The notes beneath the pieces are model-generated. The model did no database searches and was not told the origin of the DNA. It worked only from the letters and a program-made list of their open reading frames with translations. This document shows, piece by piece, positions 12,456 through 43,742 of a stretch of DNA of 44,270 nt. The translations under genes were made by a program, and so were the position numbers. This DNA comes from a virus. The stretch lies in the IMG/VR virus record IMGVR_UViG_3300011443_000011, positions 1 to 44,270 of that record, one strand, 5' to 3'. Within the stretch, counting starts at the first letter, position 1. Every line of letters begins with the position of its first letter.

Positions 12456-12671
12456 CTATTCAAGGGGGATGAAGTCCGAGTCATGGGCGCCACACCTGCC
12501 ACACTCCAGGCGAGCCAGATCCGCCCCAGGCTCCACTGAACCATCATCCTCATCGCCGCAAAGCCGACACCGGCACTTGCCCACCGTGAAGCCTTCGGCA
12601 CGGTAATAGCGATGGGCCGCTTCCACGTCGCGCCAGAGGCGTGACTGAAATTTCGCGAGGTGTTTACTCAT
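12456..12671 (-). CDS. Zinc-ribbon protein (71 aa)
   Basis: CRCRLCGDE...ECGRCG gives two CxxC-type pairs. ATGA overlap with the upstream gene. Confidence 0.5.
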   Translation of the reverse strand: MSKHLAKFQSRLWRDVEAAHRYYRAEGFTVGKCRCRLCGDEDDGSVEPGADLARLECGRCGAHDSDFIPLE

Positions 12672-13021
12672 CGAAGAGCATCCACGATTCCAATGAACAG
12701 GTCGTCCTTGACCCTTTGAGATACAGGCAATTCATCATACGGCAGGAAGCAAGGATGCTCCTTCTTCTCGGGATCCTTCACCGGGCCGTATTTCCAGCCA
12801 GTCGCTTTCTTTTCTTTCAACCACTCCTCATGACTTTGACTTGGCGAACTGCCTGGATGTGATAGGTGAAATTCGACGCCTTTTACCGCACTTGTCCTTT
12901 GCCATTCTGGAGCAGATTCCCAAACGGGTTGCGATTGATCCCCGAGAGTCTCGCAATAGGCTCGATTGGCTTCGTGGCATACTTTCGCAATTTCTTCTGG
13001 TTTCATATTCTTAACATTCAT
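12668..13021 (-). CDS. RyR-domain protein (117 aa)
   Basis: HEEWLKEKKATGWKYGPVKDPEKKEHPCFLPYDELPVSQRVKD matches the bacterial/phage RyR repeat consensus I recall (E-x-W-x(5)-GW-x-YG...HP-x-L-V/L-PY-x-x-L). The start is set at ATG 13021 (ATGA with the upstream stop). The 67-aa N-terminal extension in the ORF track is discarded. Confidence 0.65.
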   Translation of the reverse strand: MNVKNMKPEEIAKVCHEANRAYCETLGDQSQPVWESAPEWQRTSAVKGVEFHLSHPGSSPSQSHEEWLKEKKATGWKYGPVKDPEKKEHPCFLPYDELPVSQRVKDDLFIGIVDALR

Positions 13022-13215
13022 AACAACAACGGTTGCTTGACGTTCTTCAAGGTCTCCACGATGGCAGTCATGGCCGCGATCTCCCGGTCTGCTTTCAATT
13101 GATTCATCCGGCCTTCGCTCACCCATTTCGGGTAAAAGTTCTTCCGCTTCTCCAGTTCGCGCTCGGCGCAGCGAACTTGTTCCTCGAGCGGAATCTGTGT
13201 CACCGCCTCGCTCAT
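13018..13215 (-). CDS. Hypothetical protein (65 aa)
   Basis: ATG at 13215, 3 nt after the dnaB stop. It looks helical and charged. No motif recognised. Confidence 0.5.
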   Translation of the reverse strand: MSEAVTQIPLEEQVRCAERELEKRKNFYPKWVSEGRMNQLKADREIAAMTAIVETLKNVKQPLLL

Positions 13216-13218
13216 AAT

Positions 13219-14742
13219 TCATAATTCGCTTTCTGCCTCGGCCTCGAGTTCTGCCTCCTGGTTGATCGCCGTGACCCGCCGGCCAGCCTCCACCGCCCCG
13301 GTGTTAGCGTGGCGATCCAGAAACCGGAAGGTCGGCCGGTGAAAGGTCAGCTCCACCCCGCCCGTGGGGCCGTTGCGCTGCTTCACCATCTCGAGGTTGA
13401 CCAGCCAGGTCTCTTCCCTGGCTTCCCTGGCTTCGGGGCTCTCTGATTCGTCCGACGGGTCGGACTTGTCTGACTTGTCGGACCGCCGATCGCGGTAAAG
13501 GATCCCGATGTTGTCCGCCATCTGCTCGAGGTAACCGCTCTCGCGGAGGTCGCTCTTCATTGGGCGGCGCTTCTTGCTCTTGGCCATTTCGCGCTGCCCT
13601 TCCCGATTGAGTTGGGAGAGCACCAGGACTGGCACGTCGAGCGTGAGAGCAAGCCAGCGGCAGGCGCTCATCAGCAGTTTGCCCTCGAGCTTCATGTCGC
13701 CGCGGGCCTCGGGCGCGTAGCATTCGTGAAGGTGATCGAGCATCAGGATCCGGCAGCCGAATTGCTTCACCAGGCGCCGGCCGCGGACCCGGATGTTGAG
13801 CGGGGTCAATTCGCCTCGGTCATCGATGTAGATCGGGGCGGGTGTTAGGCGTCCCGCGCTGCGCACGAGCGCTTGCAGGTCCAGATCGCTCGCGTAGCCG
13901 GAATGGACTTTCTTGCCGTTGACGCGGCCCTCGATGCAGAGCAGGCGCATGGTCAATTCGTTGCGGCCGCTCTCGGCGCTCAGGATGCCCACGGGCGCGC
14001 CCTGGTTGACGGCGATGTGATCCGCGATGTTCAGCATGAGGCTGGTCTTACCCACGCTCGATTCGCCACCGAGCAGGGTGAGTTCGCGGGGTTTATAGCC
14101 TGTGGTGAGTTTGTTGTAGTAGCCCCAGGGGGATTGCAAGCCAGTGGCAAGACCGTTGGTCCGGTGTTCGGTCGATAACTCGATTGTCCTCAGCACCCCG
14201 GGAATGAGATCGCCGATCCGGCTGGGGCCGTGGTTCGCGCTGGCGCCCTGGTCGCTGAGCGCGATGACCTCGCCCTCGAATTGGGTGATCAGTTCCCCGG
14301 CATCGGTGGCGGTGGCGGCCCGGCCCAGGTGGGCGCCGGCTATTTGAAGGCTTTGGCGGATCCGCCATTTGCCCGCGACCTCGTCCAGGTAAAGCCCGAT
14401 CTGGGCGGGGCACGGGCTGGCATCTTCTAACTCCGAGACGTAGCTAATGCCGCCGACGTCATCGAGCTGGCGCAGATCGCGCAACCGGGTGACGAGCAGG
14501 ACGAGGTCCGGCCGGCGATTCTCGGCGTCGAGCGCGAGCATCGCCTGGTAAATGGTCCGGTGCTTGAGATCGTAGAACTGGCAGCCGGCCTCGGTGGCAT
14601 CGGTGCAGGCCAGCTTCTCCTGGGCCAGGCCCATGGCGGTCTCGAAGGCGTCGCCGGGATCGCCCGCGGCCTGGAGCAGGCTGCCTAACACCCCGCGTTC
14701 GGCTTCGGGCGCGTGGGGGGGGAGGTTGGATTCGGGGTTCAT
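13219..14742 (-). CDS. dnaB: Replicative DNA helicase, DnaB family (507 aa)
   Basis: N-terminal LPPHAPEAERGVLGSLLQ is the DnaB signature. Walker A is GGESSVGKTSLMLNIA, Walker B is ILMLDHL, and SQLNRE is present. The start is set at ATG 14742 (ATGA with the loader stop). Confidence 0.9.
   Translation of the reverse strand: MNPESNLPPHAPEAERGVLGSLLQAAGDPGDAFETAMGLAQEKLACTDATEAGCQFYDLKHRTIYQAMLALDAENRRPDLVLLVTRLRDLRQLDDVGGISYVSELEDASPCPAQIGLYLDEVAGKWRIRQSLQIAGAHLGRAATATDAGELITQFEGEVIALSDQGASANHGPSRIGDLIPGVLRTIELSTEHRTNGLATGLQSPWGYYNKLTTGYKPRELTLLGGESSVGKTSLMLNIADHIAVNQGAPVGILSAESGRNELTMRLLCIEGRVNGKKVHSGYASDLDLQALVRSAGRLTPAPIYIDDRGELTPLNIRVRGRRLVKQFGCRILMLDHLHECYAPEARGDMKLEGKLLMSACRWLALTLDVPVLVLSQLNREGQREMAKSKKRRPMKSDLRESGYLEQMADNIGILYRDRRSDKSDKSDPSDESESPEAREAREETWLVNLEMVKQRNGPTGGVELTFHRPTFRFLDRHANTGAVEAGRRVTAINQEAELEAEAESEL
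13441..13483. repeat. 9-bp-periodic GTCNGAC array C (5 units) inside dnaB
   Basis: CTCTGAT at 13441, GTCCGAC at 13450, GTCGGAC at 13459, GTCTGAC at 13468, GTCGGAC at 13477. It encodes RRSDKSDKSDPSDESE, an insertion-like acidic loop near the helicase C-terminus. Confidence 0.9.
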
Positions 14743-18564: not shown

Positions 18565-19146
18565 ATGATGGCTAGTCTTCAAAGTGTACCGGGAGCGCTG
18601 CCCGGTCAAATGCAGTTCAATCTTGGGCCGGCCATTGAGGCCGCCTGTCAGCAGGGCCGGCGCCAGGCCAGGAAATCGGCGCCGGGCCGGTGGCGCCTGG
18701 CCTCGATGCACGACGGACCGGTGATCGATCTCAAGAAACTCGATCAGCCCGAAAGTGTCGCCGACTATTGGGCCACCCATATTGCACCCGATCCCGAGGT
18801 GTCAACCGAGGTTGAAAGCCTGTTTGCCATTTGTCTCACTGTCCGCTTTCAGCCGATCGGCCATTTCCGGGTCGCCGAGGGTCTCTTAAGTGAAATCCTG
18901 TGCCACCCGCGTGAGGTCTTCCGGGGCGCGATCGTCGCCGCGGCTCATTCGATTGTGGTTGTCCACAATCATCCATCAGGCGATCCCACGCCGAGCGATT
19001 CGGATATATCAGCCACCCGCGAGCTGATCAAATGCGGCAAGCTATTAAAGATTCAGGTATTGGATCATATCATCATTGGCCGCCCGGCGCCTGGCCGCGC
19101 CAGGCATTATACAAGCTTGCGTGAATTGGGCTATTTCTACTGCTAA
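18565..19146 (+). CDS. radC: RadC-like JAB/MPN domain protein (193 aa)
   Basis: HNHPSGDPTPSDSDISATRELIKCGKLLKIQVLDHIIIG is the RadC JAB signature. An SD-like AAAGGTGAG lies 6-14 nt upstream of ATG 18565. Confidence 0.85.
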   Translation: MMASLQSVPGALPGQMQFNLGPAIEAACQQGRRQARKSAPGRWRLASMHDGPVIDLKKLDQPESVADYWATHIAPDPEVSTEVESLFAICLTVRFQPIGHFRVAEGLLSEILCHPREVFRGAIVAAAHSIVVVHNHPSGDPTPSDSDISATRELIKCGKLLKIQVLDHIIIGRPAPGRARHYTSLRELGYFYC

Positions 19147-19397: not shown

Positions 19398-19562
19398 ATG
19401 CCTAAAAGCAAGCATAATCTCAACAAGAATCCCGCCGCGGTTCAACTGGGCCGCCTGGGCGGCGCCGCCGGCCGCGGCGCGCGCAAGGCCAGGCCGAGCG
19501 AGAGCGCCCGCCGGGCCGCCCAAATCCGATGGAACGGCAACGGCAATCAGCAAAAACCATGA
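19398..19562 (+). CDS. Small basic protein (54 aa, not in the ORF track)
   Basis: My own translation is MPKSKHNLNKNPAAVQLGRLGGAAGRGARKARPSESARRAAQIRWNGNGNQQKP*. The LGR-x-GG...R..AA..RW pattern recurs in small phage/plasmid proteins. Its TGA overlaps the integrase ATG (ATGA at 19559..19562). Confidence 0.45.
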   Translation: MPKSKHNLNKNPAAVQLGRLGGAAGRGARKARPSESARRAAQIRWNGNGNQQKP

Positions 19563-20833
19563 CGCAGACATTCAAATTCGAGGGCAGAGAGCGCCGGATA
19601 TTCAAACGCGGGGGCAACTGGTCTTTGCGCCTTTATGTGGACGGCAAAGACCGGTGGATCAGTCTCAAGACTGGCATCTTGGGCAGCGCCATCGAGGCCG
19701 CCAAGAATATCATCAAGGCGCACCGGGAGACGCGCGCCGAGGACTTTGCCGCCGCCCTGGGCCAGCGGCCGCGGGGCGAGATCACGGTCGGCAATATCGT
19801 AGCCGCCTTTAACGCGGCACCCCTGGCCATCGCCCGGGGCAGCCGGGCCGGTTATCTATGGGCGTTACGTAGCATCATTGAGACGGTGCACGGCAAGGAG
19901 CCGGCCTGGACCGATCACCCGCTCTCGATTCTCAACGGCGATCTCATCTTTAAGTATCGCAAAGGGATCATGGCCACGGCCCTGGCGGCCGGCGCCGGGG
20001 CCGCCGCTCTCGAGCGCGCCAAGCGCAGCGCCAATAGCGCCCTGCGCCAGGCCCGTTCGATATTCTCGGAGCATTTGATGGAACACTACCGGATCGAGGC
20101 CGGGCTCTCATTGCCGGCCGGCTTGAGCGGGTTCCGCTCGGCGCCAGGCTTCCGCGGGGCGGTCAAGACAGATTATCAACCGCCCGATGACGCCCTGATT
20201 CAAAAGACGCTTGGCGAACTCGAGGCCACCCGCGAGTTGCACCCCGACCGCTACCTGGCCTGCTGGTTGTCGCTCGGGTTCGGGCTGCGCAAATCCGAGG
20301 TGTCGGCGTTGAAAGGCGATAGCTTCTTCGAGATCAATGGCCGGCCGCACGTCGAATTGCGCTCCGTGACCGTGATTGGCGGCGAGTGCGATCTAACCAA
20401 AAACGGCACCCAGGCACCGCGGGTGCCGGTGGCCAACGACGCCTGGCGCCGGATCGGCCCCATGATCGAGCATATCCCGGCCGGCCACTATCTGATAGCG
20501 GGCACCATGACCTATCGCACAGAGGGGATGTTCCGCGAGATCAATGACTGGTTGCGGGCTCTCGGTTGGAAGACCCAGAAAGGCTTTCATGAGTTGCGCG
20601 CCTATGCCGGGTGCCAGGTGGCCCTGCGATCGGGCCTCCTCGAGGCCAGCAAATGGCTGCGGCACGAGAGCGTCACGACGACCCAGGCAGCCTACGGCCG
20701 CTATCTCAAGATCCAGGTTACCGACGCGCCGATGTCCCTGGCGCCACCCACGGATCAGTCCGGCGGCGGGGCGGGCCGGATCCTGGCGGCGGGCGCAGCC
20801 CTGATGATCGGGGCGGTGGCGGTATGCTCCTAG
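19559..20833 (+). CDS. int: Tyrosine integrase (424 aa)
   Basis: GLRKSEV (box I Arg), FHELRAY (H-x-x-R) and LRHESVTTTQAAYGRY (catalytic Tyr). It is adjacent to a tRNA-like attP core. Confidence 0.9.
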   Translation: MTQTFKFEGRERRIFKRGGNWSLRLYVDGKDRWISLKTGILGSAIEAAKNIIKAHRETRAEDFAAALGQRPRGEITVGNIVAAFNAAPLAIARGSRAGYLWALRSIIETVHGKEPAWTDHPLSILNGDLIFKYRKGIMATALAAGAGAAALERAKRSANSALRQARSIFSEHLMEHYRIEAGLSLPAGLSGFRSAPGFRGAVKTDYQPPDDALIQKTLGELEATRELHPDRYLACWLSLGFGLRKSEVSALKGDSFFEINGRPHVELRSVTVIGGECDLTKNGTQAPRVPVANDAWRRIGPMIEHIPAGHYLIAGTMTYRTEGMFREINDWLRALGWKTQKGFHELRAYAGCQVALRSGLLEASKWLRHESVTTTQAAYGRYLKIQVTDAPMSLAPPTDQSGGGAGRILAAGAALMIGAVAVCS

Positions 20834-20916: not shown

Positions 20917-21097
20917 TGCATAAAAACGAGACCATACTAAAGCGTACTGGAGTGGTACGGTTTGATAAACTTTGGTACACGGCAAAAGTGAACCAATTGA
21001 CTGATAACAAGGCACTTGGAAACGTAAATAGCTTGGCACCAGTAAGTTAAAACCACTTAACAACGTGTCAGGACGATAAACTCTTAATCAGTTGGTT

Positions 21098-21122
21098 GAC
21101 GGTTCGAGTCCGTCCCGGGGCA
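21098..21122 (+). other. tRNA 3' fragment (T arm plus 3' acceptor strand): probable attP core
   Basis: GACGG TTCGAGT CCGTC CCGGGGC A has a canonical T stem and GTTCGAGTC-type T loop, a 7-nt acceptor strand and a discriminator. No matching 5' acceptor strand (GCCCCGG) or D arm lies upstream, so it is not a complete tRNA. Confidence 0.6.
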
Positions 21123-21140
21123 CTTCTAGATCAACGAGTT

Positions 21141-21473
21141 ATGAAAGATTGGAAAAAGTCTGCTACGGAAACTGCTACGGTCGCCGCCGGTGCCGACCCT
21201 TCACCTAACACTAGCGGACAGACGACGGCCGCGGGCCTTGCTACGGTCGATGCTAACACACCTAAAAAGCGAATCGACTGGCTGGAATTATGCCTCTGGA
21301 TCGGTACTCTCTCCTGGGCCGGCGCCGTCTTATGGCTCTTCCATCGGCTCGGGCCGGAGTTCGATGATCGTCCCTGGCTCGAGATCGCGCTCGTAGGCGG
21401 AGCGCTCCTAAGCTATTTCGTGTGGACCTTTATTTGGGTCGAGAGCAACAAGCCACCCAAGCGCACCCGCTAG
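21141..21473 (+). CDS. Two-TM membrane protein (110 aa), att-adjacent moron
   Basis: ATG 21141 gives MKDWKK.... TM helices are WLELCLWIGTLSWAGAVLWLF and LEIALVGGALLSYFVWTFIWV. The ORF-track start at 21096 reads through the tRNA fragment and is discarded. Confidence 0.5.
   Translation: MKDWKKSATETATVAAGADPSPNTSGQTTAAGLATVDANTPKKRIDWLELCLWIGTLSWAGAVLWLFHRLGPEFDDRPWLEIALVGGALLSYFVWTFIWVESNKPPKRTR
21160..21182 (+). repeat. 23-bp direct repeat, right copy (candidate integrase arm site)
   Basis: Identical to 20894..20916. The two copies bracket the tRNA-like core at 21098..21122. Confidence 0.8.
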
Positions 21474-24400
21474 CGAACCTTGAGCCGTTTCCCCATTTCC
21501 GTGATCCGCTCAGCCCGGCGCGCGGCCGTCCGATACCTGGCCTGCCGGCTCTCGAGATTTGGATCCTTGTTAGCCCGATCGAGGAGATCCTTGATTTGTT
21601 CGTGGGCCGGCTGCAAGGCATGCCAGTAGGCTTTCTCTTTCGCGGTGAGCGGATGCGTCTTCGAACGGGATCGCATCCCTATGAAAGAGTAGTCGTCGAA
21701 AAAGTCGGCAATGAATTGATTATTCTGGCTGTAGCCGCCACCCCGCCGGAACAACCGGCCAACGATCGGCCAGTCGGCCGGCTCCGGCTCGCGGCCTGGC
21801 TTGTCGCTGGCCAGGTCCCGGACCGCGCCAGGCAGGGAAAGAATATCGGTCGCAAGGCCGCCACCCAGTTGTTGCGCCAGGGCGTCAACCCGCTGCGGTG
21901 AGATCGTATTGGGCGCCAGGTCACCCAGGGCCGCAGCCGGAAGCGAGGTGTAGGGCCCGCGCTGCTCGCCTGGCGGCCGGCCGACCAGATTCGCGGGCAC
22001 AATATTTCGATCAAAGAAAAAGCGCTTGTTGGCAAACTGCTCTCCCGCGGCGGTGAGAAGCGGCGGGGCACTTCCGGGCACCGTGGTCAAAAATAGATGA
22101 TTGAACGCTTGCTTGGCGAACTCGGGATCGCGCTGGTGAAGTGTATCCATGAGGGCCTCGGGGATGACCTGGAACATATTCCCCCATTCGTGCGGGCGAG
22201 GCACTTTCACGATCACCCCGTTAGGCATTTCCACGTGAGTGTTGAGATAGCGCTCGCGCCAGGGCAGGCCGCGGTACCAATCCTTGTCCTTGTTGCGGTT
22301 CCAATTGGCCATCGTCCAGGCGGTGATCATCCCGCCGGCCATTGACATCTGGAGGGCCAGCTTTGCCCGTGACCGTTCCGGGCCGACCAGGCGATCGCGC
22401 TTAAAGGTCCGCGCAGTCCCTCGAAGACCTTGAACCGCGGCGCCGAAAAAGGGCGAGTACCGTTGCAAGGCCCGATAGGTGCCACTGCCCCCGCGCGCGG
22501 TGAAATCCGTGGTCACCCGCTTGGTGGCGATCGCCAATTGCAACGCTTGTTCCGCGGTGATCGGCTCGCCCGGTTTCCAGCCGAAGTGATCCAACCCCAG
22601 CTTGAGTTCAGCCAGTCGCGGGGCGTTCTCCACCGAGCCGATCAGATCCCGCAGCGTCTCAACCGGCGACATCGCCCGGCGAAAGAGCCGGCCCCGGAAC
22701 AAGTGCCGGCTTTCGCGGCGCAAGGTCCGGATATCCCCGGCGTTGAAATTGGCCATCGGGGTGCCGAGGTCATTGAGCATCTTGAGGGTTTCGGAGCCCT
22801 TGCCCAGGCCCACCTCCTGGAACAGGCCCTTGAGATTCTCGCCCCAGGCCCCCATGTAAGCGGCCAGGATCTTGTCGGGGCGCCCGGTGAAATGCGATTG
22901 AACCAGCAGCGTTTGCAGATCACGCAACCCGTTGAAAATGGCGAACGGCACCCGCAGGCCGGTGGTGCCCAGCTTGAAGAGCCGGTTTGAGCCGGCGAAA
23001 ATCTCGCCGATCGCGTGGCTATATTTCTTGAGCTGGGCGGGCGGGGTCTCGCTCAACACCTCGGCGATCTCCGGGTTGACCTGGTACCAGTCGGTCTCGC
23101 CTCCGACCGTCTTGCGGACCATCACCGAGTCCCAGCCCTTGGGCTTGTGTGCGTCGGTGAAATAGCTGACAAAGGCATCAGCAGGAACGCCCGTCAAATC
23201 GAGCCCCATCGCCTCGAGCTGCGATTTGATCTTGTCGATCGAGACATTGTTCGGCACCTGATCTTTGGGCACCTTCTCAACCAGCGACCCCATTCCGGGC
23301 GTATTCGCGGCCTCAAAAACCGTTTCAGTGACCAGATCGCGGTGGGCCTTGTCGATCAGGCCGCTGGCCACTTTCAGCGTCGATTCGTAGATATTGCGGA
23401 TCCCGAGACCCGACCCCTCCATCTTATGCAGGCCGCCGCCGCCGCGGCCGGCCTCGCCGGCTCGGGCGAGGGCCTCGGGAATCTGGCGGGGCAATGGCAC
23501 ATATTCATGAGAATGCTGGCGGATGCGGTCAACCAGCTCGGCATTCGCGGGGCTCGCCTCCGCCACGTAATCGAGGATCCCGTCCCACCATTTGTAATAG
23601 CCTTGAGCGGCGCGGGCGAAGCGGGGATTCTCGAGCAGCGCCCGGTTGTGCTGGGCATCAGCCAGGCTCATGCCGGGGTTGACCGGCTCCGGCCGGCCCC
23701 AGCGCTCGATCGCGCGGCGCGCCCACAGATACACCGCGAATTGCTCGGCCTCGCCCGGTTTGATCGGCGCCAGGGCGTTCTTGAGCGATTCACCACCGGT
23801 GGCGCGGCCCCAGATATCGAGCATCCCGTCATTGACCATTGTCTGCAACACCTTGGGCGTTGCCCCGCGCTTGGCGGTATAGATCGCGAAGGGATCCTGG
23901 GTCACCGGCAATTTGGCGCCGGTCAACTCGCGGTGCGCCTCGCCAATCCGCTCAAGCGGGGTGGCCTCCTCAACAAACCCTTTCGTGCTCAGCGTCTCGC
24001 GGACCGATTGAAGCTTGCTCGCAAGCCAGCTTGAGGGCGGCGCCATCTGAGCCATGGCCCGCTCATAGGAGCCTTGTTCCCGCCAGAGATCCGTGGCCCG
24101 CTTGGCGGCCTGCATCGCCTCGGCAAACCCTGGCTTGCCGGCGAACACGACGTTCTCGAGCCATTGCGTGGCGTGGGGCGCCACGGTCCGGGCATCATCC
24201 AGGGTCAGCCAGTGCCGCAGTAATTCGGAAAAACCCTCGGAGGTGTAGCCGGCGTTCGGCTTCCGGCTGCCGTAAAGGGCCCGGCCCATCGCCACCAACT
24301 CGGCGCGCACATTCGGCGGGGTCGAGGTATGAAGGGGGGTGCCGGCCTTGCGGAACATCCGGTGATCGATCGCATGGGCAATCTCGTGGGCGGCCGTGGT

Positions 24401-26521
24401 GATGTTGTCGGCGCTATTGAGCCGGATCACCTCGGCGCGCGGTTTGAAAATGCCGCGGGCGGTGCGGGCAGCCTTTCCCATCCGCCCCCAGCGGATCGGT
24501 GTGGGCGATCCGACCGTCCTCATCACCCTGGAGTAATAACCAAAAATCTCTGGAATGCTGATCCGTCCCGTCCCGGCCGCCGCCCGGTTCATCGCCACCG
24601 GGAACCGCGTGCCGCCAGTGACGGGTGTGGTCCCCGCCGGCAATGCCTGGGTCGCGGGCTCGGCTTGAATACTTTCACCGCCGCTGGTTGCGCCTGGCGC
24701 TGGTTCGCCCAGTTCAAGCTCACCGCCCGCGGCGCCACCGGAGAGCGGGGGCGGGGCTGTATAATCGGGCGGGGGCGCCTTGCCGCGAACGATATCGACC
24801 AGGTCCGGGTGCAGATGCCAGTTCTCCCAGCGGGCGCGTTCGGCGCGCAGGTGAGCCAGCTTGGCCTCGAGGGCCGCCGGGTTCTTGATATCGATCCCGT
24901 ACCGGGCGGCCACCTCCGGCTTGCGTGCGGCGCCGAGGATCGCGCGGATATTCTCGGTGTACTCCGCCTGGATCCTCGAGGCCCTTGCGGCCTGGTCCTC
25001 CATCGCCCGGATCGCGGCGTCGTCCCGGCCGAAGATGTCGATCTGCTCGCCGCCACCGCCGCCCGGGGCGGAGGTCTTCTGGTCCATCGCGGCAACCCGC
25101 GCAATGTTCGCGGAATCCTGCGGGCTCTTGCCTTTCAGGGCGGCGCCAATGCCGACCCGTTGAACGGCGTCGTTCTCCGGGGCGACTAAGGCGATGGCTT
25201 CGGCGTGGTCGGGGCTGATCCTTTCGTTGATGAAGGCGTCCCACGTACTATCCGAGGCAGAGAATGCAATGGACGTAGCTTTCCCTGCTCTTTCGCCAAG
25301 AGATCGGCCTTGCGCCAGCGCAGCATCCTTGCCGTGTGTTGCTGCGAGGTTTCGGAAAAATTTCGCCTGGTCATAAATCGTCCCTTTGCCGTCAGCGATA
25401 TTGATCTCGGCCGCTTTCGTCCGCGCGGCCGCTTCGCTCCATCCATCCGATTCCCGGATGATTTGCGCGCCCAGGTCGGCAACCGCGTCACGCTTGGCCT
25501 TGGCGACCCGATGATGACCGTTGGCGACGATATACCGCTCGGCCGGCCCGAGGCCATACTTCGCCTTGTCGAGCGGCTCCCACAAGAGCAAATTGCCGCC
25601 CTTGTACGGATCCCATTTGCCGGTAATGGCGTCCCGTTTGTTCTCCCCGGTCCGAACATCGTCCTGCTGTTTGAATTGCATCACGTCCGGGCGCGACACA
25701 ATTTCACCGGTCGGCACCCGTCGAGCCACATGGCCCTCGAGTTCAGCCGGAGGTTCAACTGGAGGGGCGGGTGGCCTGGCCGCGGGCTCGGTCTGGGCTG
25801 GCTTGAAATCGATCTTCGCTGGCTCAGTGGGCGCCAACTTCATTTCCGCCTCGAACCCGCCAGTTGCAGGGACCGGGCGGGTGCGACTGAGGGCGTGCGT
25901 TGCGGCGCCGGCTGCCATTGCCCCGGTCAACAAGGCGCCGGTGGCCGCCTCGGCGGCACCCTGCATATCCCCGCGCTTGTAGGCTTCCTGGGCTGCGGGA
26001 ACCTGCTGGAGGGCGCCGAGGGTCATATCCACCCCGAAAGCGCCACTCATCAGCTTGAGAATGCTCGGGGCCTGCGCAAGAGCGGCGCCGGCGCCAAATG
26101 TCAAAACCGATCCGGGTGATGCCAATACGTCGGCAACGTTCAGCGTTGCGTTGTAGGCGCCACCGGCAAGCTGCACGGGCAGGGAATCCTGCGGGCCGAC
26201 CCGCAAGGTGCGAGTGTTGACCTTCTCGCTCGGCATGAACATGCCAGGGATCAATCCGAACCGGTCGATCCTGCTCGCCGCCTCACCCTTCATCGGCTCC
26301 CCGCCACGCCGGCCCAGCAATGCCTCGACCGGGGCGGAGTCCCGAGCCGCGGTCACTGCCCGGCCAAGAAATGGCTCAGCCTTCGGGATTCGCGGGGCAA
26401 CCGTTGGCCAGTACCGATCCGGTAACGCAAGAGCCGCCTGGCTCTCTTTGGCCTCGGGTTCCGGTTCCGGCTCGAAGGCGATCTCCTCCTCGGGCTCGAA
26501 ATCTATGGTCTCACTGGGCAA
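21470..26521 (-). CDS. Giant polyvalent (probably virion-internal/ejected) protein with ParB-like and zincin HExxH domains (1683 aa)
   Basis: TTG start at 26521. Gly/Ala-rich hydrophobic segments span aa ~115-210. The ParB/Srx-type motif YIVANGHHRVAKAKRD has GHHR at 25519..25508. The zincin motif AAHEIAHAIDH has HEIAH at 24388..24374. It is the last gene of the late operon. The architecture matches the polyvalent proteins described for phages and conjugative elements. Confidence 0.7.
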   Translation of the reverse strand: MPSETIDFEPEEEIAFEPEPEPEAKESQAALALPDRYWPTVAPRIPKAEPFLGRAVTAARDSAPVEALLGRRGGEPMKGEAASRIDRFGLIPGMFMPSEKVNTRTLRVGPQDSLPVQLAGGAYNATLNVADVLASPGSVLTFGAGAALAQAPSILKLMSGAFGVDMTLGALQQVPAAQEAYKRGDMQGAAEAATGALLTGAMAAGAATHALSRTRPVPATGGFEAEMKLAPTEPAKIDFKPAQTEPAARPPAPPVEPPAELEGHVARRVPTGEIVSRPDVMQFKQQDDVRTGENKRDAITGKWDPYKGGNLLLWEPLDKAKYGLGPAERYIVANGHHRVAKAKRDAVADLGAQIIRESDGWSEAAARTKAAEINIADGKGTIYDQAKFFRNLAATHGKDAALAQGRSLGERAGKATSIAFSASDSTWDAFINERISPDHAEAIALVAPENDAVQRVGIGAALKGKSPQDSANIARVAAMDQKTSAPGGGGGEQIDIFGRDDAAIRAMEDQAARASRIQAEYTENIRAILGAARKPEVAARYGIDIKNPAALEAKLAHLRAERARWENWHLHPDLVDIVRGKAPPPDYTAPPPLSGGAAGGELELGEPAPGATSGGESIQAEPATQALPAGTTPVTGGTRFPVAMNRAAAGTGRISIPEIFGYYSRVMRTVGSPTPIRWGRMGKAARTARGIFKPRAEVIRLNSADNITTAAHEIAHAIDHRMFRKAGTPLHTSTPPNVRAELVAMGRALYGSRKPNAGYTSEGFSELLRHWLTLDDARTVAPHATQWLENVVFAGKPGFAEAMQAAKRATDLWREQGSYERAMAQMAPPSSWLASKLQSVRETLSTKGFVEEATPLERIGEAHRELTGAKLPVTQDPFAIYTAKRGATPKVLQTMVNDGMLDIWGRATGGESLKNALAPIKPGEAEQFAVYLWARRAIERWGRPEPVNPGMSLADAQHNRALLENPRFARAAQGYYKWWDGILDYVAEASPANAELVDRIRQHSHEYVPLPRQIPEALARAGEAGRGGGGLHKMEGSGLGIRNIYESTLKVASGLIDKAHRDLVTETVFEAANTPGMGSLVEKVPKDQVPNNVSIDKIKSQLEAMGLDLTGVPADAFVSYFTDAHKPKGWDSVMVRKTVGGETDWYQVNPEIAEVLSETPPAQLKKYSHAIGEIFAGSNRLFKLGTTGLRVPFAIFNGLRDLQTLLVQSHFTGRPDKILAAYMGAWGENLKGLFQEVGLGKGSETLKMLNDLGTPMANFNAGDIRTLRRESRHLFRGRLFRRAMSPVETLRDLIGSVENAPRLAELKLGLDHFGWKPGEPITAEQALQLAIATKRVTTDFTARGGSGTYRALQRYSPFFGAAVQGLRGTARTFKRDRLVGPERSRAKLALQMSMAGGMITAWTMANWNRNKDKDWYRGLPWRERYLNTHVEMPNGVIVKVPRPHEWGNMFQVIPEALMDTLHQRDPEFAKQAFNHLFLTTVPGSAPPLLTAAGEQFANKRFFFDRNIVPANLVGRPPGEQRGPYTSLPAAALGDLAPNTISPQRVDALAQQLGGGLATDILSLPGAVRDLASDKPGREPEPADWPIVGRLFRRGGGYSQNNQFIADFFDDYSFIGMRSRSKTHPLTAKEKAYWHALQPAHEQIKDLLDRANKDPNLESRQARYRTAARRAERITEMGKRLKVR

Positions 26522-27794
26522 GTCGATAACCTTTCTTCAGGGCGACCTCGACCTGGCTGGCGGGAATCGTTCCCCGCTTGCCGTCAGGAGCGACCACCGT
26601 GACCCGTGCCTTGGCTGGTTCCGGGGTGGGTTCCATGGCCGATCCTGGCTGGGTCGTGACAGCACCAGCAACCTCGGCATCGGGCACCACGGGCGCCTCC
26701 TCGCCCCGGAGCGATTCGCGCAGGTCGCCAAACGCCGGACGAAAGTTCTGCGCGGGCACATCATCCCCGCGCAGGGATTGCCGCAGGTCGCCGAATGCCG
26801 CCTTGAGCGGCACCGGTTCCGCTGGTCCCGCCGGGGCTGGCGGGTTCAACAACATATTCAGGTCGTTGATCGCCTTCTCCATCTCGGAGATATCGCGCTG
26901 GTATTGCTCAGCCTCCGGACCCGTGACGCCTTCCGCTTGAGTTCGTAACTCGCGCAACTTCTCCGCGATCTCGGCCCGCGTCTTGATAACCGTTCCACGC
27001 TGGGCAGGTGTCAGGGTGGTAACTCCCTTGTCCTTGGGCAAAAGCTGGAATCCGCCCTTGCCCGTGGGAATCCCGAAACTGATGATGTTACCTTTCTCAT
27101 CACGGATTGCCTGCGCCGTTGGAGTTTCACCACCCCCGATCTCATTCGGCAAAACTTGGAATGCGCCTGTTCCCCGCGAAAAAACCACCTTGCGCCCGGC
27201 CAGGTCCATCTCTTCCGGAACCCGGTCGCGCTCGCCCGCGCCGTACCGCTGCAAGGCGTTGATCATCGTATCGACATGCGGGCTGCCGGCCACCCCGGAC
27301 TCGCCCGCATAGCGGGTCAGGGTTGCGGCATCAATCGAGGGAGGGGGTGCCGCAAAGGGAACCTGGACATTGGCCGGCCGATTAAAATGCCCGGCAATAA
27401 GCTGATTGTATCTGGCAAGCTTGCGGGCATCATCGGCCTTGAGCGCGGCCGCCTGCTGGCTCAATGCGAGCTGGGCCTCCGCCCGGCGATTGTCCGCCTC
27501 GTAATTGGCGATCTGCGCCTTGCGCACCTTGTCCGCCATGTACATCGCCGCGCCGCCGATCACCCCCTTGGCGGCACCCGTGCTCATGCTCGGCACCTTG
27601 GAGAGCTGCTCGCCGAACAGTTCGAGCGCCTGCGGATCGTCCTTCAGATACCGGCCGATCATTTCGGCGGTGGCGGTCGTTTGCTGGCGTTCCTCACGGT
27701 TGCGCCGCCAGTCCTGGAGGTTCTGGGCAAGGCGCGGGCCGACCTGCGAGAAGTATTCGCCGGCTTGAGCCTGTATTCCTGGGGCGTAAGGCAT
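26511..27794 (-). CDS. Internal virion/structural protein (427 aa)
   Basis: Coiled-coil-rich. It has an internal tandem duplication AAFGDLRQSLRGDDVP / PAFGDLRESLRGEEAP (26682..26801). It overlaps the next gene by 11 nt. Confidence 0.5.
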   Translation of the reverse strand: MPYAPGIQAQAGEYFSQVGPRLAQNLQDWRRNREERQQTTATAEMIGRYLKDDPQALELFGEQLSKVPSMSTGAAKGVIGGAAMYMADKVRKAQIANYEADNRRAEAQLALSQQAAALKADDARKLARYNQLIAGHFNRPANVQVPFAAPPPSIDAATLTRYAGESGVAGSPHVDTMINALQRYGAGERDRVPEEMDLAGRKVVFSRGTGAFQVLPNEIGGGETPTAQAIRDEKGNIISFGIPTGKGGFQLLPKDKGVTTLTPAQRGTVIKTRAEIAEKLRELRTQAEGVTGPEAEQYQRDISEMEKAINDLNMLLNPPAPAGPAEPVPLKAAFGDLRQSLRGDDVPAQNFRPAFGDLRESLRGEEAPVVPDAEVAGAVTTQPGSAMEPTPEPAKARVTVVAPDGKRGTIPASQVEVALKKGYRLAQ

Positions 27795-35798: not shown

Positions 35799-38700
35799 TC
35801 ATTGTAATCGCAACCACATCCTGGCCGGATCGATTGAGGAACGGACGGAAATCGCGCCGGAGACGTTCGGGTCGTAGGCCGCGAGGTAATAATCCGCATG
35901 GCCCCGATCGCCGACCGTGAGATTTCCAAGGGTGGAGACCTTCTTGAAGGTGATGGGAACGTCCGCGAGGTCGGCGAAGGTATCGACAACGCCAGCGAAT
36001 GAGATCGAAGTCACTTTCCGGCTGACCGAGTTCGTGACCGCGAATCCCTCCGACATTGCAAGCGCAGTGCGGTAGCCTGAATTGACCATCACCCATGCGC
36101 CTGGCAGTCCGGGTCCGCTCCAGTTACGGTAGAAAACCAAGTCGACTGCGGTGCCTTCCTTGAGGGTGTTTGCGGGCAGTTCTCCGCCATCCGGAAGGAA
36201 AATAGAACGCTCATACGTGCGATCAGCGCCGGATGGGGGATTGGTCGGAAAGTTGAGTGACACCCCGCCGGTTCCGGTATTTGCCCAACCACCTGGGGCG
36301 TTGGGCCGGCGCACACGGCCGACAAGTCGCGTGCCTTCAGGTGGCTCAGGCAAGGCACCCGTATACGCGGGATTCAACGTTCCGACCCCGAACCACAATG
36401 TCGTCGGATTGACTGCCGTGGTTGTGTCCGTCAAAGTCGATTCGAATTGCAGCGGGCTGCCCGCCGTTCCGGCGAGCGACGCAAACTCCACCGACCCATC
36501 CACATTATTGAGGGTGAGCACCTGGCCGGTTGCCACCGCGCCCGCGCCCTGGTTCACCTTGGGCGTCTTCAGGCGCAGCACCGATTGTCCCTTCAACTCA
36601 AGCTCGCCGGAGGTTTCGATCTTGGCTCTCGAGATCGCGTTGACATCGAACGTTCCAAGGGAATTCATCGCCATGTTGCCGAATCCCTGGAAGGTCAGCG
36701 TCTGGTTGTTCATGGTCACCGTCCGAGGGCCACTGAGTGTGCCGTTGGCGTTGTAGATGCTCGTATCGGGTGGCAGGGCGGCATACTCGACCCTGCCGAC
36801 ATCCTGGTCCATGAGCGTGAGCACCTGGCCATTGATCGCGGTCCCATCCGAAATCTTGGGTGTGAAAATGTCGAGCTTGGTCCGGCCTTCCAGGTGCAAG
36901 GTGCCACTGGTTTGCAACGTGCCATCCGCGGTCGAATTCAGATTGTAACTAGTGAGGGCCGTGCCGAACAGCCGGCCAGGCCCTTGGAAATTCAAATTCA
37001 CCCCGCTCATGGTGACCGTGCGATTGCCTGTCAAGGCGCCGTCCGAGTTGTATAGATTGACTGTTGGGACCGTGTTAAACTCCACGGCGCCATTGCTCTG
37101 GTCAATCAATTGCAGGAATTGACCTTGCCGGCCGGCGTATAAAGGAGTCCGAAGCATCAAACGGGTGGGTGCGGCAATGGTGGTGGTGGCGGAGGACACC
37201 CCGAAATCGTTCAGGCCAGTGAAAAGCAAGCTGTTGTTGTTGCCGCTCAGCGTGCGATGCCCGGTTAAAGCCGCGTCATGCGTGTAAATGCTGACATCCG
37301 GACCGGCCACGCTCAAGGGTTGGTAATCTGCCGTGCCGTCAGCGGCGAGGGTGAGCACCTGGCCGGCCATCAAGGCGGGAGTTGAGGCGATCAAGCGTGG
37401 CGTGTTGAGGTAGAATTGCTTGGTGGACGTTAGCCGAATCCACTCGGACGCGAACACGTCGTTGGTCTTGGCGGACAAGACGATTCGGTTCGGGCCGTTC
37501 ACCTGGAAACGATCGCCTGTGCCCGTAAAATCGAGGTTGAATGTGCTCTGGTTAACTTGCCGATTGCCGGTCAACACTCCGTCAGCAGTGTAGATATTTA
37601 CCGCATTGGTCGGTAACGGCAGCGGGGCAAATTCAACCCGGCCACTCGACGATTCTTGAAGCGTCAACACGTACCCATTGGCGACGCCGCCGTTGGTAAG
37701 CACCTTGGGTGTCGCGATACTGACGCTCCCCTTGCCCCAAATCGCCGCGTTCGTGCTGTCCACAAAGAACTGATTGAGACCGACCATGTTCAGGCTGTTA
37801 CCGGCGCCCGTGATGGTCCGAGTGCCGGTCAATGTGCCGCTCGTCGTGTATATGTTGGTTGGGAAATACCAATCGCACTCGCCATCCGCTGCCGTCAGCG
37901 TGAGGACCATTCCAATGGTTGCCGCGCCCCTGGGCTCTGGCGCCTGGTTATCTCTTTGAAAAAGGTCGAGCATTTCAGTGGGCAATTGCCCGCTCTCCCT
38001 GAGCAGCGTGAAGATCCGCGGGGTCGCCAGCTTGAACTTGCTTGCCCCCGTAAGCTGCAGCAGCGTCGAACCGTAGACGTCGTTCGTCACCCCATAGAAT
38101 CGCCCTCGCCCGAAATTGATGGCGTCGAAATAACCAGTCGTACCAAACGCGACATTTCCCGAGCCCGAAAACGAGAGTGTCCTTGGACTTGGACCTACCG
38201 TGACTGTCCGATCCGCCGTAATCGTCCCGCTCGCGGTGTAAATGCTGACATCCGTGGGAAAGGAGATCGATTTGTACTCCGCGGTCCCGGTGGCGGGATT
38301 CATCAGTGTCAACACCTGGTTGGAGACCGCCGTGGAGCCGGCGACATTGGGCGTCTTCAGGTTAAACTCCAGCGCGCCGCTGATCGTTGAGGTACGGCCG
38401 CTCGAGCTGAAATGATTCAGATTGGTCAGCGACAGCTCCCGGAAATTGCCCTCAACAATGCGATTGCCGCCCAAAATGCCATTCGTGTTATAGAGGTTAT
38501 AGGCCGGGTGAAAGTCCGCGAGGCCAGTGCCGGAATTCACCATGGTTAATACCTGCCCATCAGCCGCGCCTGCGCTGAATCGCGGGGTAAATAACTTGAA
38601 CCGCTGCCCAGCGCCCACCTGGTATTCCTCGGTTGCGTATTGGACATTCGTGATGGAGGACATCCCGATATACTTGATAGCCTCCACCGTGAATTGCCCG

Positions 38701-40391
38701 CCGGGATCGATAAATGAAAGCCGGTTGGTCCCAAGACGAAACGAAAGCTGATTCGTGCCAAGATGAACCTGTCGCGGACCGGTGAGTGTTCCGTCCGAGG
38801 TGTAAATGTTCACCGAGGAGGTCACCGGCAACGGCCGCCAGTCCACAAGGCCGCCCGTGTCCAGCAAGGTGAGGACCTGGTTGGTGGCTGCGGTTCCACC
38901 CACGATGCTGGGTGTGCGCATTCTATATTCCACCGACGCCCCGGAGATATTCGTCAGGATTCCCCGGGTCTCATAAAGGCTGAAGTTGGTGAACGTGAGG
39001 TTCCTGCTAGCGCCGGATACGGTTCGATTATCTGCCAGGGCGCCATTGGCGGTGTAGAGATTGGAGGAGACCACAAACTCTGAACGGCCCGTTGCCGCAT
39101 CGAGCAGGGTCAAGACATGCCCGTTGGTTGCCGTGGCGGCGACCACATTGGGAGTCGCCAGGCCGAGTGAACTGGAGCCGTACAGCAAGGAATTCTGGGC
39201 CGCCGCGCCGAAGTTCAAGAGGTTCGTGAAGGTCAATCTCCGGGAGGCCCCTTGCAGCGTTCGGTCACTCGAGATCGTGCCATCGGAATTGTAGATATTG
39301 AGCGTTGGCTGCGCGACTGCCGGCAAAAATTCCGCCATTCCCGTCGTCGCATTCGCCAAGGTCAGCACGTGGCCAACCTGGGCGCTGGCATTGCGAACAT
39401 TGGGCGTACGGACGTTAAAGAAGTTGGTGGCGACGATGAGCGCCTCGCCGCCGCGCATCGCCGCCGCGGGCGATTGGATCTCAACAATGGGCGCCGTCAT
39501 AAGCAACCCACTGCCCGCATTGGTCGATATGAACTGGAGAACGCGATTAGTGAGGTCAACAACCCGGTTGCCAGTTAATGCTCCGTTGCTGTTGTAGATA
39601 TTCGTCCCGCTCGCTCCGGCTGGGAGCGGGGCGAATTCAACCACGCCATTGACCCCGCTCAAGGTGAGCACCTGGCCCACCTGGGAGCCGCCCGCGACAA
39701 CGTTCGGGGTTCGAATGCTCAGGAGTCCAGGGGACTCAATGATGGTGTTGCCCGCGCTCTTCAGGCTGGCGAATTGGCTCGCATCCACTGAAAATGTATC
39801 GACTGGCACAAAGGTGACCGGGCCACCCCTGAAAGTGAGTGACTTGCCGTTGAGCGTGACGATCCGGTTGCTCGCGATCGTTCCATCCCCTGTATAGAGC
39901 GTCGTAGCGGGGGTTGGGGTTCTGAATTCCGCCTCGCCCGTGCCAACATTGATCAACGTCAGAGCGTCACCAGCCTTGGCACTGGCAGCGCTCACGAAGG
40001 GAGTGCGGAGATTGAAATGCTGACCAGGGGACAAAGTGATATCACTCGGGGTCGCCAGGCTGATTAAACCATTGGCCGCCACCGTAAAGCTGCTGATGTT
40101 CGAGGAAGCGATGCTCCCAGGGCCGCGCCAAAAAAGAGGGTTGGCGCCGAGATCAACTATCCGGGGGCCATTCAGGGTGCCATCGGAGGTATAAAAGGTT
40201 GGCCCGCTGGCGATCGGCAGCATCCGCCAGGCCCAGGGCGCGGTGCTCGAGGCGATCAAGGTGCTCGTATTGGTGCCGCTCCAGGTATTGGTGAGGGCGT
40301 ACATTGCCGCCGTCTCCTGGACGGTGACGGTTGCCGTTCGGTTGCCGCCTGGGGTGGGATCCGCGACTTGAAACGGGTTGGCCGCCACCAT
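35799..40391 (-). CDS. Giant modular fibre/adhesin-like protein (1530 aa from ATG 40391; 1584 aa if ATG 40553)
   Basis: 13 tandem modules averaging ~96 aa span aa 120-1367 of the long ORF. Each has [IL]Y[TN]xxGxLxxxRxV...LxFxG followed by TP[NRK]vxxxxxxxGqVLTLxxxxxGxxEF. A unique 217-aa C-terminal domain follows. The start is ambiguous (see findings). Confidence 0.7.
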   Translation of the reverse strand: MVAANPFQVADPTPGGNRTATVTVQETAAMYALTNTWSGTNTSTLIASSTAPWAWRMLPIASGPTFYTSDGTLNGPRIVDLGANPLFWRGPGSIASSNISSFTVAANGLISLATPSDITLSPGQHFNLRTPFVSAASAKAGDALTLINVGTGEAEFRTPTPATTLYTGDGTIASNRIVTLNGKSLTFRGGPVTFVPVDTFSVDASQFASLKSAGNTIIESPGLLSIRTPNVVAGGSQVGQVLTLSGVNGVVEFAPLPAGASGTNIYNSNGALTGNRVVDLTNRVLQFISTNAGSGLLMTAPIVEIQSPAAAMRGGEALIVATNFFNVRTPNVRNASAQVGHVLTLANATTGMAEFLPAVAQPTLNIYNSDGTISSDRTLQGASRRLTFTNLLNFGAAAQNSLLYGSSSLGLATPNVVAATATNGHVLTLLDAATGRSEFVVSSNLYTANGALADNRTVSGASRNLTFTNFSLYETRGILTNISGASVEYRMRTPSIVGGTAATNQVLTLLDTGGLVDWRPLPVTSSVNIYTSDGTLTGPRQVHLGTNQLSFRLGTNRLSFIDPGGQFTVEAIKYIGMSSITNVQYATEEYQVGAGQRFKLFTPRFSAGAADGQVLTMVNSGTGLADFHPAYNLYNTNGILGGNRIVEGNFRELSLTNLNHFSSSGRTSTISGALEFNLKTPNVAGSTAVSNQVLTLMNPATGTAEYKSISFPTDVSIYTASGTITADRTVTVGPSPRTLSFSGSGNVAFGTTGYFDAINFGRGRFYGVTNDVYGSTLLQLTGASKFKLATPRIFTLLRESGQLPTEMLDLFQRDNQAPEPRGAATIGMVLTLTAADGECDWYFPTNIYTTSGTLTGTRTITGAGNSLNMVGLNQFFVDSTNAAIWGKGSVSIATPKVLTNGGVANGYVLTLQESSSGRVEFAPLPLPTNAVNIYTADGVLTGNRQVNQSTFNLDFTGTGDRFQVNGPNRIVLSAKTNDVFASEWIRLTSTKQFYLNTPRLIASTPALMAGQVLTLAADGTADYQPLSVAGPDVSIYTHDAALTGHRTLSGNNNSLLFTGLNDFGVSSATTTIAAPTRLMLRTPLYAGRQGQFLQLIDQSNGAVEFNTVPTVNLYNSDGALTGNRTVTMSGVNLNFQGPGRLFGTALTSYNLNSTADGTLQTSGTLHLEGRTKLDIFTPKISDGTAINGQVLTLMDQDVGRVEYAALPPDTSIYNANGTLSGPRTVTMNNQTLTFQGFGNMAMNSLGTFDVNAISRAKIETSGELELKGQSVLRLKTPKVNQGAGAVATGQVLTLNNVDGSVEFASLAGTAGSPLQFESTLTDTTTAVNPTTLWFGVGTLNPAYTGALPEPPEGTRLVGRVRRPNAPGGWANTGTGGVSLNFPTNPPSGADRTYERSIFLPDGGELPANTLKEGTAVDLVFYRNWSGPGLPGAWVMVNSGYRTALAMSEGFAVTNSVSRKVTSISFAGVVDTFADLADVPITFKKVSTLGNLTVGDRGHADYYLAAYDPNVSGAISVRSSIDPARMWLRLQ

Positions 40392-40433
40392 CTGGCTGAT
40401 CGTGATGAACGACTTGACGGTCGGCTGGGCAAC

Positions 40434-40529
40434 TAGGGAAGAGGGACTAGAGGCGAGGGACGAGAGCAGAAAGAACCAAAGGAAACGCAAGAGTCTTCCC
40501 TGACCCCTCGCCCCTAATCCCTCGCCCCT
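40434..40529. repeat. Inverted pair of heptamer arrays (NAGGGNN type) upstream of or within the fibre 5' end
   Basis: Left arm 40434..40468: TAGGGAA GAGGGAC TAGAGGC GAGGGAC GAGAGCA. Right arm 40495..40529: CTTCCCT GACCCCT CGCCCCT AATCCCT CGCCCCT. On the mRNA the 5' arm reads AGGGGCGAGGGAUUAGGGGCGAGGGGUCAGGGAAG. Confidence 0.85.
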
Positions 40530-40534
40530 AACTA

Positions 40535-43714: not shown

Positions 43715-43742
43715 AGGTTTCAGGTTCCGGGTGTCAGGTGAT
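43715..43742. repeat. Tandem heptamer array, unpaired
   Basis: AGGTTTC AGGTTCC GGGTGTC AGGTGAT. It contains the capsid stop (43734..43736) and lies 10 nt from ATG 43704. Confidence 0.85.

Follow-up and report, generated by a model that had tools for sequence, protein, structure and literature searches.

The window analysed here, a 44,270-nucleotide (nt) stretch of viral DNA (positions 1 to 44,270 of IMG/VR record IMGVR_UViG_3300011443_000011), carries on its minus strand a giant gene encoding a protein of 1683 amino acids (aa) that is a new, divergent member of the established class of phage-type polyvalent proteins. We propose, with a probability of roughly 0.6, that this protein is packaged in the virion and combines a C-terminal delivery vehicle, a processing zincin metallopeptidase (MPTase) and a ParB-type cargo (hereafter module A). 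An earlier note on this DNA had described a late phage gene for a polyvalent protein with a ParB-like domain and a zincin motif. The open reading frame (ORF) lies exactly where that note placed it, its GHHR motif corresponds to residues 335–338 (nt 25508–25519, within the 25367–25720 given earlier), and its HExxH motif is HEIAH at residues 712–716 (nt 24374–24388, in exact agreement). The late phage setting is borne out by the presence in the window of a portal homolog, an integrase and a capsid protein of the SU10 type. The gene and its parts, all on the minus strand, are as follows:

21470..26521, minus: giant gene, 1683 aa, an uninterrupted ORF with a TTG start
26207..26521, minus: aa 1–105, acidic, Pro-rich N-terminus, little conserved and probably disordered
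25877..26206, minus: aa 106–215, conserved Gly/Ala-rich, moderately hydrophobic N-terminal domain
25736..25876, minus: aa 216–262, Pro/Ala-rich linker
25394..25726, minus: aa 266–376, N-terminal half of module A, a predicted ParB/sulfiredoxin (Srx)-like beta-beta-beta-alpha-beta-alpha unit (pLDDT 52–79)
25067..25393, minus: aa 377–485, helical bundle of module A (pLDDT 82–97)
24752..25024, minus: aa 500–590, long C-terminal helices of module A, ending in a conserved RWxNW..PDLV motif
24587..24751, minus: aa 591–645, Gly/Pro/Ala-rich linker preceding a PVAM motif
24017..24586, minus: aa 646–835, very likely a zincin metallopeptidase domain
21473..24016, minus: aa 836–1683, conserved, mostly helical C-terminal core
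21761..22285, minus: aa 1413–1587, Pfam LPD38 (PF18857; E 7.8e-26, 91.8 bits against a cut-off of 27)

The assignment to the polyvalent class, also made in the earlier note, is upheld by the LPD38 match, which lies well above the Pfam cut-off, and by the different extra domains carried by proteins that share its modules. MPTase, DdrB-ParB and LPD38 domains have all been listed in phage-type polyvalent proteins, and an MPTase–ParB fusion has been described (Iyer et al., 2017, PMC5512222). We collected 96 related proteins and compared them by local BLAST. Full-length relatives are 39–52% identical to the giant protein, and unrelated domains are recombined among the collection: module A (aa ~263–590) is 40–56% identical in about 70 otherwise differing giants of 1.7–2.9 thousand aa, with the cargo swapped between proteins. 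Four relatives (P0079, P0081, P0083 and P0084) share the N-terminal domain and have no module A match between this domain and the C-terminal module, and other parts of the relatives' chains bear ART-PolyVal, ddrB-ParB, SLT or RadC domains.

Module A proved to be abundant. An exhaustive profile search recovered 3201 clusters (50% identity) at E ≤ 1e-3, 2143 at E ≤ 1e-10 and 703 at E ≤ 1e-30, and among the matches listed the module lies several hundred residues inside most proteins of at least 1000 aa. It has no match in Pfam or NCBIfam and only a partial one in PHROGs. Across 19 relatives, R277, Q282, K284, N334, G335, H336, E357 and N374 are invariant, R338 of the NGHHR motif (25508–25522) is nearly so (at least 90%), and D377 is also conserved. 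These positions fall on what we take to be the three nucleotide-binding motifs of ParB.

An AlphaFold2 (AF2) model of module A, built from a 19-sequence alignment (mean predicted local distance difference test, pLDDT, 77; predicted template modelling score, pTM, 0.67), consists of a ParB-type N-domain followed by a helical DNA-binding domain. When this model was compared with the PDB using Foldseek, all of the top 20 matches were ParB, Noc or Spo0J proteins (probability 0.54–1.0, above 0.75 in 19 of the 20; 156–333 columns; target-normalised TM at most 0.55), and these chromosomal proteins were the best and the only consistent structural matches. The alignments span about 215–245 columns, close to the length of the truncated chains of 187–221 residues that comprise the N-domain and the DNA-binding domain. 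Judging from this alignment length, the bundle at aa 377–485 is probably the helix-turn-helix (HTH) DNA-binding domain of ParB/Noc, and the helices at aa 500–590 are a possible dimerisation element. As modelled, module A would thus resemble full-length chromosomal ParB, with its N-domain, helical DNA-binding domain and C-terminal helices.

The ParB motifs also appear in the expected register when module A is aligned by hhalign with Bacillus subtilis Spo0J (a query identical to PDB 6sdk) and with a 13-sequence ParB alignment, at E-values of 0.14–0.3. The reference alignment was drawn from plasmid ParBs; a homology search with Spo0J gave only Bacillus ParBs at least 80% identical. The non-significant pairings are RPDLMQFK with QPRK, LLLWEP with LQPI, YIVANGHHR with YxIVAGERR, and IRE with VRE, so that MQFK, GHHR and IRE stand as the counterparts of QPRK, GERR and VRE, and NGHHR supplies a GxxR-type arginine motif opposite GERR. 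Module A differs from ParB in having NGHHR for GERR, in a long, low-confidence insert after the first motif and in the lack of a significant profile match and, unlike chromosomal ParB, it is embedded in a virion-type protein of 1683 aa.

Several results weigh against a ParB assignment. The Pfam models ParBc (PF02195) and ddrB-ParB (PF18763) did not match the giant protein at E ≤ 1, and they were likewise absent at E ≤ 10 from 19 module A members, for which the Pfam scan gave only noise; taken together, the hhalign comparisons with P1 DdrB, the relative P0093, Spo0J and the ParB alignment gave E-values of 0.14–0.35. With a pLDDT of 52–79, the ParB N-domain is modelled less confidently than the rest, so the Foldseek matches may be driven partly by the helical domain; their E-values are only about 0.02. 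Among phage records, module A was found in none but Prochlorococcus phage P-SCSP1f, as a short match of 35% over aa 269–390. A PDB sequence search with the whole giant protein found no match, and a PDB profile search with module A returned noise only (CopG, SRP). The earlier note had named failed profile searches as grounds for giving up its ParB-like domain; measured in this way the claim is borderline, as the predicted fold supports it but every sequence-profile test was non-significant. We consider a ParB-type fold for module A probable on the strength of the model. Membership of the DdrB-ParB family was rejected, as hhalign aligned module A with the ParB region of neither P1 DdrB nor P0093, a relative that bears a ddrB-ParB domain.

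A ParB-type fold could also serve an enzyme. Module A might be a nuclease or nucleoside triphosphatase (NTPase) of the ParB/Srx type, comparable to Osa, GmrS, the DGQHR-bearing DndB-like proteins or ParB-methylase fusions, that nicks or degrades host DNA or hydrolyses a nucleotide signal rather than acting as a clamp switched by cytidine triphosphate (CTP). The NGHHR motif speaks for this possibility, being, as we understand it from general knowledge, closer to the D-G-x-H/Q-R of ParB-like nucleases and NTPases than to GERR. A DNase regulated by nucleoside triphosphates has moreover been predicted for polyvalent ParB domains (Iyer et al., 2017, PMC5512222). However, the best structural matches are chromosomal ParB and Noc proteins with an HTH rather than single domains of the Srx or Osa kind, module A resembles full ParB in its long helical DNA-binding part and its C-terminal helices, and the ddrB-ParB model is not matched. 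We therefore regard an enzymatic module A as possible if unlikely. General annotation scans of the window, which included no search aimed at ParA, revealed no ParA-type ATPase. GC content and GC at third codon positions (GC3) are uniform along the giant gene, which rules out, as far as base composition can tell, a recent horizontal acquisition of module A.

Many module A giants (P0004–P0011 and others, for example 10001–16480 of L004) have another conserved unit, about 1150 aa long, at the C-terminus. This P0008-type unit shows 21–36% identity among subfamilies and is not detected by the hidden Markov model (HMM) of the C-terminal module; it may represent a second family of delivery modules.

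The second element of the proposed architecture, the zincin, occupies aa ~646–835, and its identification is well founded. H712, E713 and H716 of the HExxH motif (nt 24374–24388), E741, and E762, G763 and E766 of an E-G-x-x-E motif (nt 24224–24238) are invariant in 20 relatives down to 23% identity. In an AF2 model of the 1043-aa C-terminal module (pLDDT 80, pTM 0.71), the domain is composed of helices at 16–29, 67–84 and 96–110 and strands at 36–38, 50–53 and 58–61 (numbering of the model; pLDDT 70–93), and HExxH and ExxxE lie on helices 67–84 and 119–134. The resulting topology, a helix, three strands, the HExxH helix and further helices bearing E741 and E762/E766, matches the zincin core of an N-terminal helix, a three-stranded sheet and two C-terminal helices described previously (Iyer et al., 2017, PMC5512222).

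A PDB profile search matched the domain to the M34 Pro-Pro endopeptidase Zmp1/PPEP-1 (E 0.006–0.008 over 87 residues) and also to an ATLF-like domain. The Zmp1/PPEP-1 alignment covers HExxH and places EGxxE opposite EFFAE, one column out of exact register. Zmp1/PPEP-1 and the anthrax lethal-factor-like enzymes (M34, ATLF) have HExxH followed by ExxxE on a helix some 45 residues further on, as seen here; unlike the PPEP-1-like zincins, the giant protein has the additional invariant E741 between the two motifs. E766 would be the third zinc ligand if, as we assume, the corresponding ligand of PPEP-1 is E185, the second Glu of EFFAE. Polyvalent MPTases have previously been linked to lethal factor (Iyer et al., 2017, PMC5512222). 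A weak alignment (E 0.013) also links the HExxH region of the giant protein to that of P1 DdrB. On the other side, no Pfam peptidase or MPTase model matched the domain at E ≤ 0.1 in 26 relatives, and its PDB profile E-value is marginal. Foldseek against the PDB with the whole 1043-aa model returned no zincin. Taken together, the invariant residues, the predicted topology and the PPEP-1 match lend reasonable support to the zincin proposed earlier, and the conserved motifs make it likely to be proteolytically competent.

If the domain is a zincin, it need not act on its own polypeptide; it could be a degenerate, non-proteolytic scaffold or could attack host substrates such as the cell wall or host proteins. 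Peptidoglycan degradation by the metallopeptidase domain has been suggested by the authors of a study of phi24B (bioRxiv 10.64898/2026.04.10.717836), effector roles are possible (Iyer et al., 2017, PMC5512222), and several phages have the C-terminal core without a zincin. We nevertheless find this rather unlikely. HExxH and ExxxE are fully invariant in 20 divergent relatives, which argues for retained catalysis, and the nearest solved relatives are protein endopeptidases (PPEP-1, ATLF-like) rather than cell-wall hydrolases. In every relative with the full module, moreover, the zincin sits between the variable N-terminal part, which it directly follows, and the core, an arrangement that fits processing in cis.

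The C-terminal module (aa ~641–1683) is 39–52% identical in P0079–P0092, and its HMM finds the module in 29 of the 96 relatives. Within the core, only LPD38 is represented in a domain library, so the earlier description of about 900 residues as unassigned was true in part but did not hold for aa 1413–1587. Outside the zincin, the only invariant residues of the module are R1012, G1036, G1076, F1193, N1197, R1200 and D1201 in the core, for which no link to any known catalytic motif was found. In cultured phages, where the module is at most 27% identical to any protein, tblastn matched the 'DarB-like' protein of VvAW1 and proteins of pelagiphages, vibriophages and PTXU04 well beyond the LPD38 segment. 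The module HMM aligned to HTVC204P gp40 (HMM positions 196–1031), Vibrio phage 1.232.O gp28 (194–1024) and PTXU04 gp25 (168–1026) at E-values of 9e-122 to 1e-143, and to Bcep22 gp75 at E 2e-35 (positions 58–1019, aa 3540–4583, with HExxH at 3552). The extents of these matches, with and without the zincin, define a conserved core of aa ~836–1675 to which the zincin is an optional front end. A Foldseek search of BFVD with the model of the module gave 63 matches at E ≤ 1e-3 (best 7e-31; query-normalised TM at most 0.64 over about 950–1200 columns); the matches listed are large phage proteins, in full or in pieces; LPD domains appear in the names of several, and methylase, RelA/SpoT, lysozyme, helicase or ART in those of a few.

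Two groups of cultured relatives bear directly on function. The C-terminal ~1040 aa of Bcep22 gp75 match the module, including the HExxH zincin and LPD38, and the giant genes of Bcep22 (gp75) and JC1 (gp69), both of the genus Lessievirus, lie near the end of the virion morphogenesis module. In virions purified on CsCl, mass spectrometry detected 51 peptides of JC1 gp69, which is 79% identical to Bcep22 gp75, and gave this protein the second-best score (PMC9144972). The LPD38 protein gp47 of phi24B is likewise abundant in virions; it is invisible in the cryo-electron microscopy map and has been proposed to be an ejection protein (bioRxiv 10.64898/2026.04.10.717836). The likeness to these proteins has limits: gp75 has 4602 aa, low identity and no module A, Bcep22-like phages have genomes of about 61–64 kb, and JC1 gp69 carries LT-like, methylase, helicase and LPD3 domains, unlike the giant protein here. 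The second relative, gp25 of Escherichia phage PTXU04, shares the core (HMM E 9e-122; Foldseek E 1.8e-29, query-normalised TM 0.61) and, as here, is the product of a late gene of a podovirus-like phage, but it has no HExxH zincin and no module A, and its N-terminal ~1300 aa are unannotated. Knock-down of its gene, PTXU04_00025, by CRISPRi-ART impairs infection (bioRxiv 10.1101/2023.09.18.558157). In the T7-like pelagiphage HTVC204P, the gene for gp40 follows those for internal virion proteins and precedes that for the tail fibre. This is presumably the position that gp16 occupies in T7.

These relationships suggest that the giant protein is packaged in the virion and that its C-terminal 900 aa probably serve packaging or ejection rather than act as an effector. 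The suggestion that this stretch might hold undescribed effector domains was not borne out, as it forms one conserved module of giants that are virion-associated or critical for infection. Some observations count against parts of this interpretation. Because PTXU04, HTVC204P and Vibrio phage 1.232.O have the core without the zincin, the protease is not needed for the core's function. The whole module has no credible structural match in the PDB, T7 gp16 included, as Foldseek with the 1043-aa model returned only spurious helical-repeat and transporter matches (probability at most 0.3), and no transmembrane or hydrophobic helix is predicted within it; a role in forming a conduit thus rests on synteny and on the proposals of other authors. 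A T7 gp16-type ejection protein was accordingly not recovered by structure, the gene position of the HTVC204P homolog being the only link.

The whole protein could instead be an accessory counter-defence effector comparable to P1 DarB or DdrB, dispensable in hosts without defences, whose C-terminal 900 aa hold further effector enzymes. Cultured homologs are annotated as 'DarB-like antirestriction', relatives bear ART, methylase, RelA/SpoT or helicase domains, and roles in conflict have been proposed for polyvalent domains (Iyer et al., 2017, PMC5512222). P1 DdrB in particular shows the same pairing in concept, being a late, head-associated protein with both a domain of the ParB superfamily and a zincin MPTase. 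However, in DdrB the zincin is C-terminal, the LPD38 core is absent and the ParB domain has no detectable similarity to module A. The C-terminal module shows no detectable relationship to P1 DarB or DdrB, neither of which its HMM matched, and the module A HMM did not match DarB. Homology to the DarB antirestriction protein was likewise discarded, with no HMM match and no methylase or helicase Pfam match in the giant protein. That the module is retained as one unit across distant phages, whatever other domains are present, fits a structural or delivery role rather than variable effectors. The impaired infection on knock-down of the PTXU04 homolog was observed in a laboratory host, and the invariant residues of the module outside the zincin could not be linked to a known catalytic motif. 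An accessory effector is therefore improbable.

Under the delivery model that we favour, the protein would be produced late and would enter the head by means of its conserved N-terminal module, its C-terminal module or both. The C-terminal module would act as a conserved vehicle with which the protein enters the capsid and later leaves it along with the DNA; this module may also play a part in the ejection apparatus. The zincin at its front, an anthrax-lethal-factor/PPEP-like gluzincin, would cut the polypeptide in cis or in trans at flexible Gly/Pro linkers, releasing the N-terminal part either after packaging or after entry; the linker at aa 591–645 is a candidate site for such self-processing. 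Leaving the capsid together with the DNA, module A, as a nucleotide-binding ParB/Srx N-domain with NGHHR for GERR, would bind DNA in a nucleotide-dependent manner on genome entry. There it might act on the incoming phage DNA, by protection, compaction or circularisation, or might nick host DNA; we infer this activity and its target from the predicted fold and the motifs. The co-injection and counter-defence function put forward in the earlier note may likewise apply to the giant protein. A stricter version, in which module A is a complete CTP-switch-type ParB (N-domain, HTH and dimerising helices) that is delivered by the virion as a DNA clamp and released at entry to protect, compact or silence the DNA, strikes us as distinctly improbable.

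As the polyvalent class is already established, this gene overturns nothing. Two points appear to go beyond published descriptions. First, the unit of 850–1040 aa around LPD38, of which Pfam describes only about 190 aa, behaves as one conserved delivery module. It is kept across Bcep22-like phages, PTXU04, T7-like pelagiphages, 37-kb vibriophages and the phage described here, and its position is always C-terminal whatever the other domains, which suggests that podovirus-like phages use it generally to deliver protein cargo. Second, module A constitutes a large family whose predicted fold is of the canonical-ParB-like rather than the DdrB-like type. If it binds nucleotide and DNA, ParB biology would be extended to the first seconds of phage infection.

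The long N-terminus of the protein is real and translated, since the relative P0079 can be aligned to it from residue 3 onward. An AAAGG sequence lies 8 nt upstream of the TTG start, and the ORF shares its first 11 nt with the end, stop codon included, of the preceding 427-aa gene, an overlap that indicates translational coupling. The Gly/Ala-rich domain (aa 106–215) is found near the N-terminus of relatives with or without module A or the C-terminal module, and this constant position across different C-terminal types suggests a role in targeting or interaction. The hydrophobic Gly/Ala-rich stretch reported for the N-terminus is present and conserved, but its glycine-zipper-like character does not exceed chance: within aa ~106–215 there is one GxxxG, and 19 small-xxx-small pairs compare with 18.4 expected from composition. 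These chance-level pairs, together with a maximum 19-residue Kyte–Doolittle hydropathy of 1.28 and conserved charged residues inside the segment, rule out a glycine zipper or transmembrane anchor.

The PVAM motif (aa 641–644, window ~24590–24601) is strongly conserved, often with R-M or R-F just before it, and falls exactly at the boundary between linker and zincin in most of the relatives that have the full module. The motif may be a self-cleavage site or a docking strand.

The giant gene is the final gene of a long minus-strand late block with portal, capsid and tail-like genes, and abuts the integrase region. Two relatives on 38–42-kb contigs have the same layout, in which the giant gene closes the operon and is followed by an integrase-sized gene. 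Other genes of the window referred to here are:

2970–5168: portal homolog, identified by a homology match
18565–19146, plus: stand-alone gene for a RadC-like JAB protein (Pfam E 2.4e-32)
19529–20833, plus: tyrosine-integrase-like protein, identified by a family match
26511–27794, minus: 427-aa gene coupled to the giant gene, with no library match
35799–40553, minus: second giant ORF (1584 aa), likewise in the late block

The first 123 nt of the window recur exactly, in direct orientation, as its last 123 nt (1–123 = 44148–44270). With one copy removed, the junction is spanned by a 331-codon ORF (~327 aa counted from the first Met). The 165-aa ORF at 43734–44231 forms the C-terminal part of this longer frame and matches Pfam SU10_MCP at E 2.5e-16, and we take the junction-spanning ORF to encode the major capsid protein. 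The end repeat and this ORF indicate that the genome in the window is complete, about 44.1 kb long and either circular or terminally redundant. The genome also codes for a DnaB-type helicase and a replication initiator, and a temperate, podovirus-like phage of about 44 kb is the best explanation of these features. Module A was found in only four contigs of metagenome-assembled genomes (MAGs) among 185,579 species genomes scanned; a Hyphomicrobiales MAG and a GC content of 60% hint at Alphaproteobacteria as the host group.

Most other proteins of the window have no match in Pfam, PHROGs, NCBIfam or cultured phages, and an NCBIfam scan of the giant protein and seven neighbours returned nothing relevant. 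The 427-aa upstream protein matched nothing in any library or, by tblastn, in cultured phages. A gene for 352–379 aa occupies the corresponding position in L003 and L004, which suggests a conserved partner of the giant protein. Searches of Pfam, PHROGs and NCBIfam with the second giant protein, of 1584 aa, were negative, as was tblastn against cultured phages. A 125-aa ORF on the plus strand (21096–21473), without a family match, runs towards the giant gene and shares 4 nt with its end, stop codon included.

The stand-alone RadC-like gene of this genome lies about 2.3 kb from the giant gene, and in seven relatives (P0045, P0050, P0054, P0055, P0062, P0068 and P0069) a RadC domain is fused within the giant protein. 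Among polyvalent proteins, RadC has been described as confined to those encoded by conjugative elements (Iyer et al., 2017, PMC5512222), yet several of the RadC-fused relatives lie on contigs of about 40 kb, a length like that of this phage genome. Beside the DnaB helicase gene, a 184-aa protein (12668–13222, minus strand) contains a ryanodine-receptor-type (RyR) domain (Pfam E 5e-10) and has strong matches to PHROGs of unknown function.

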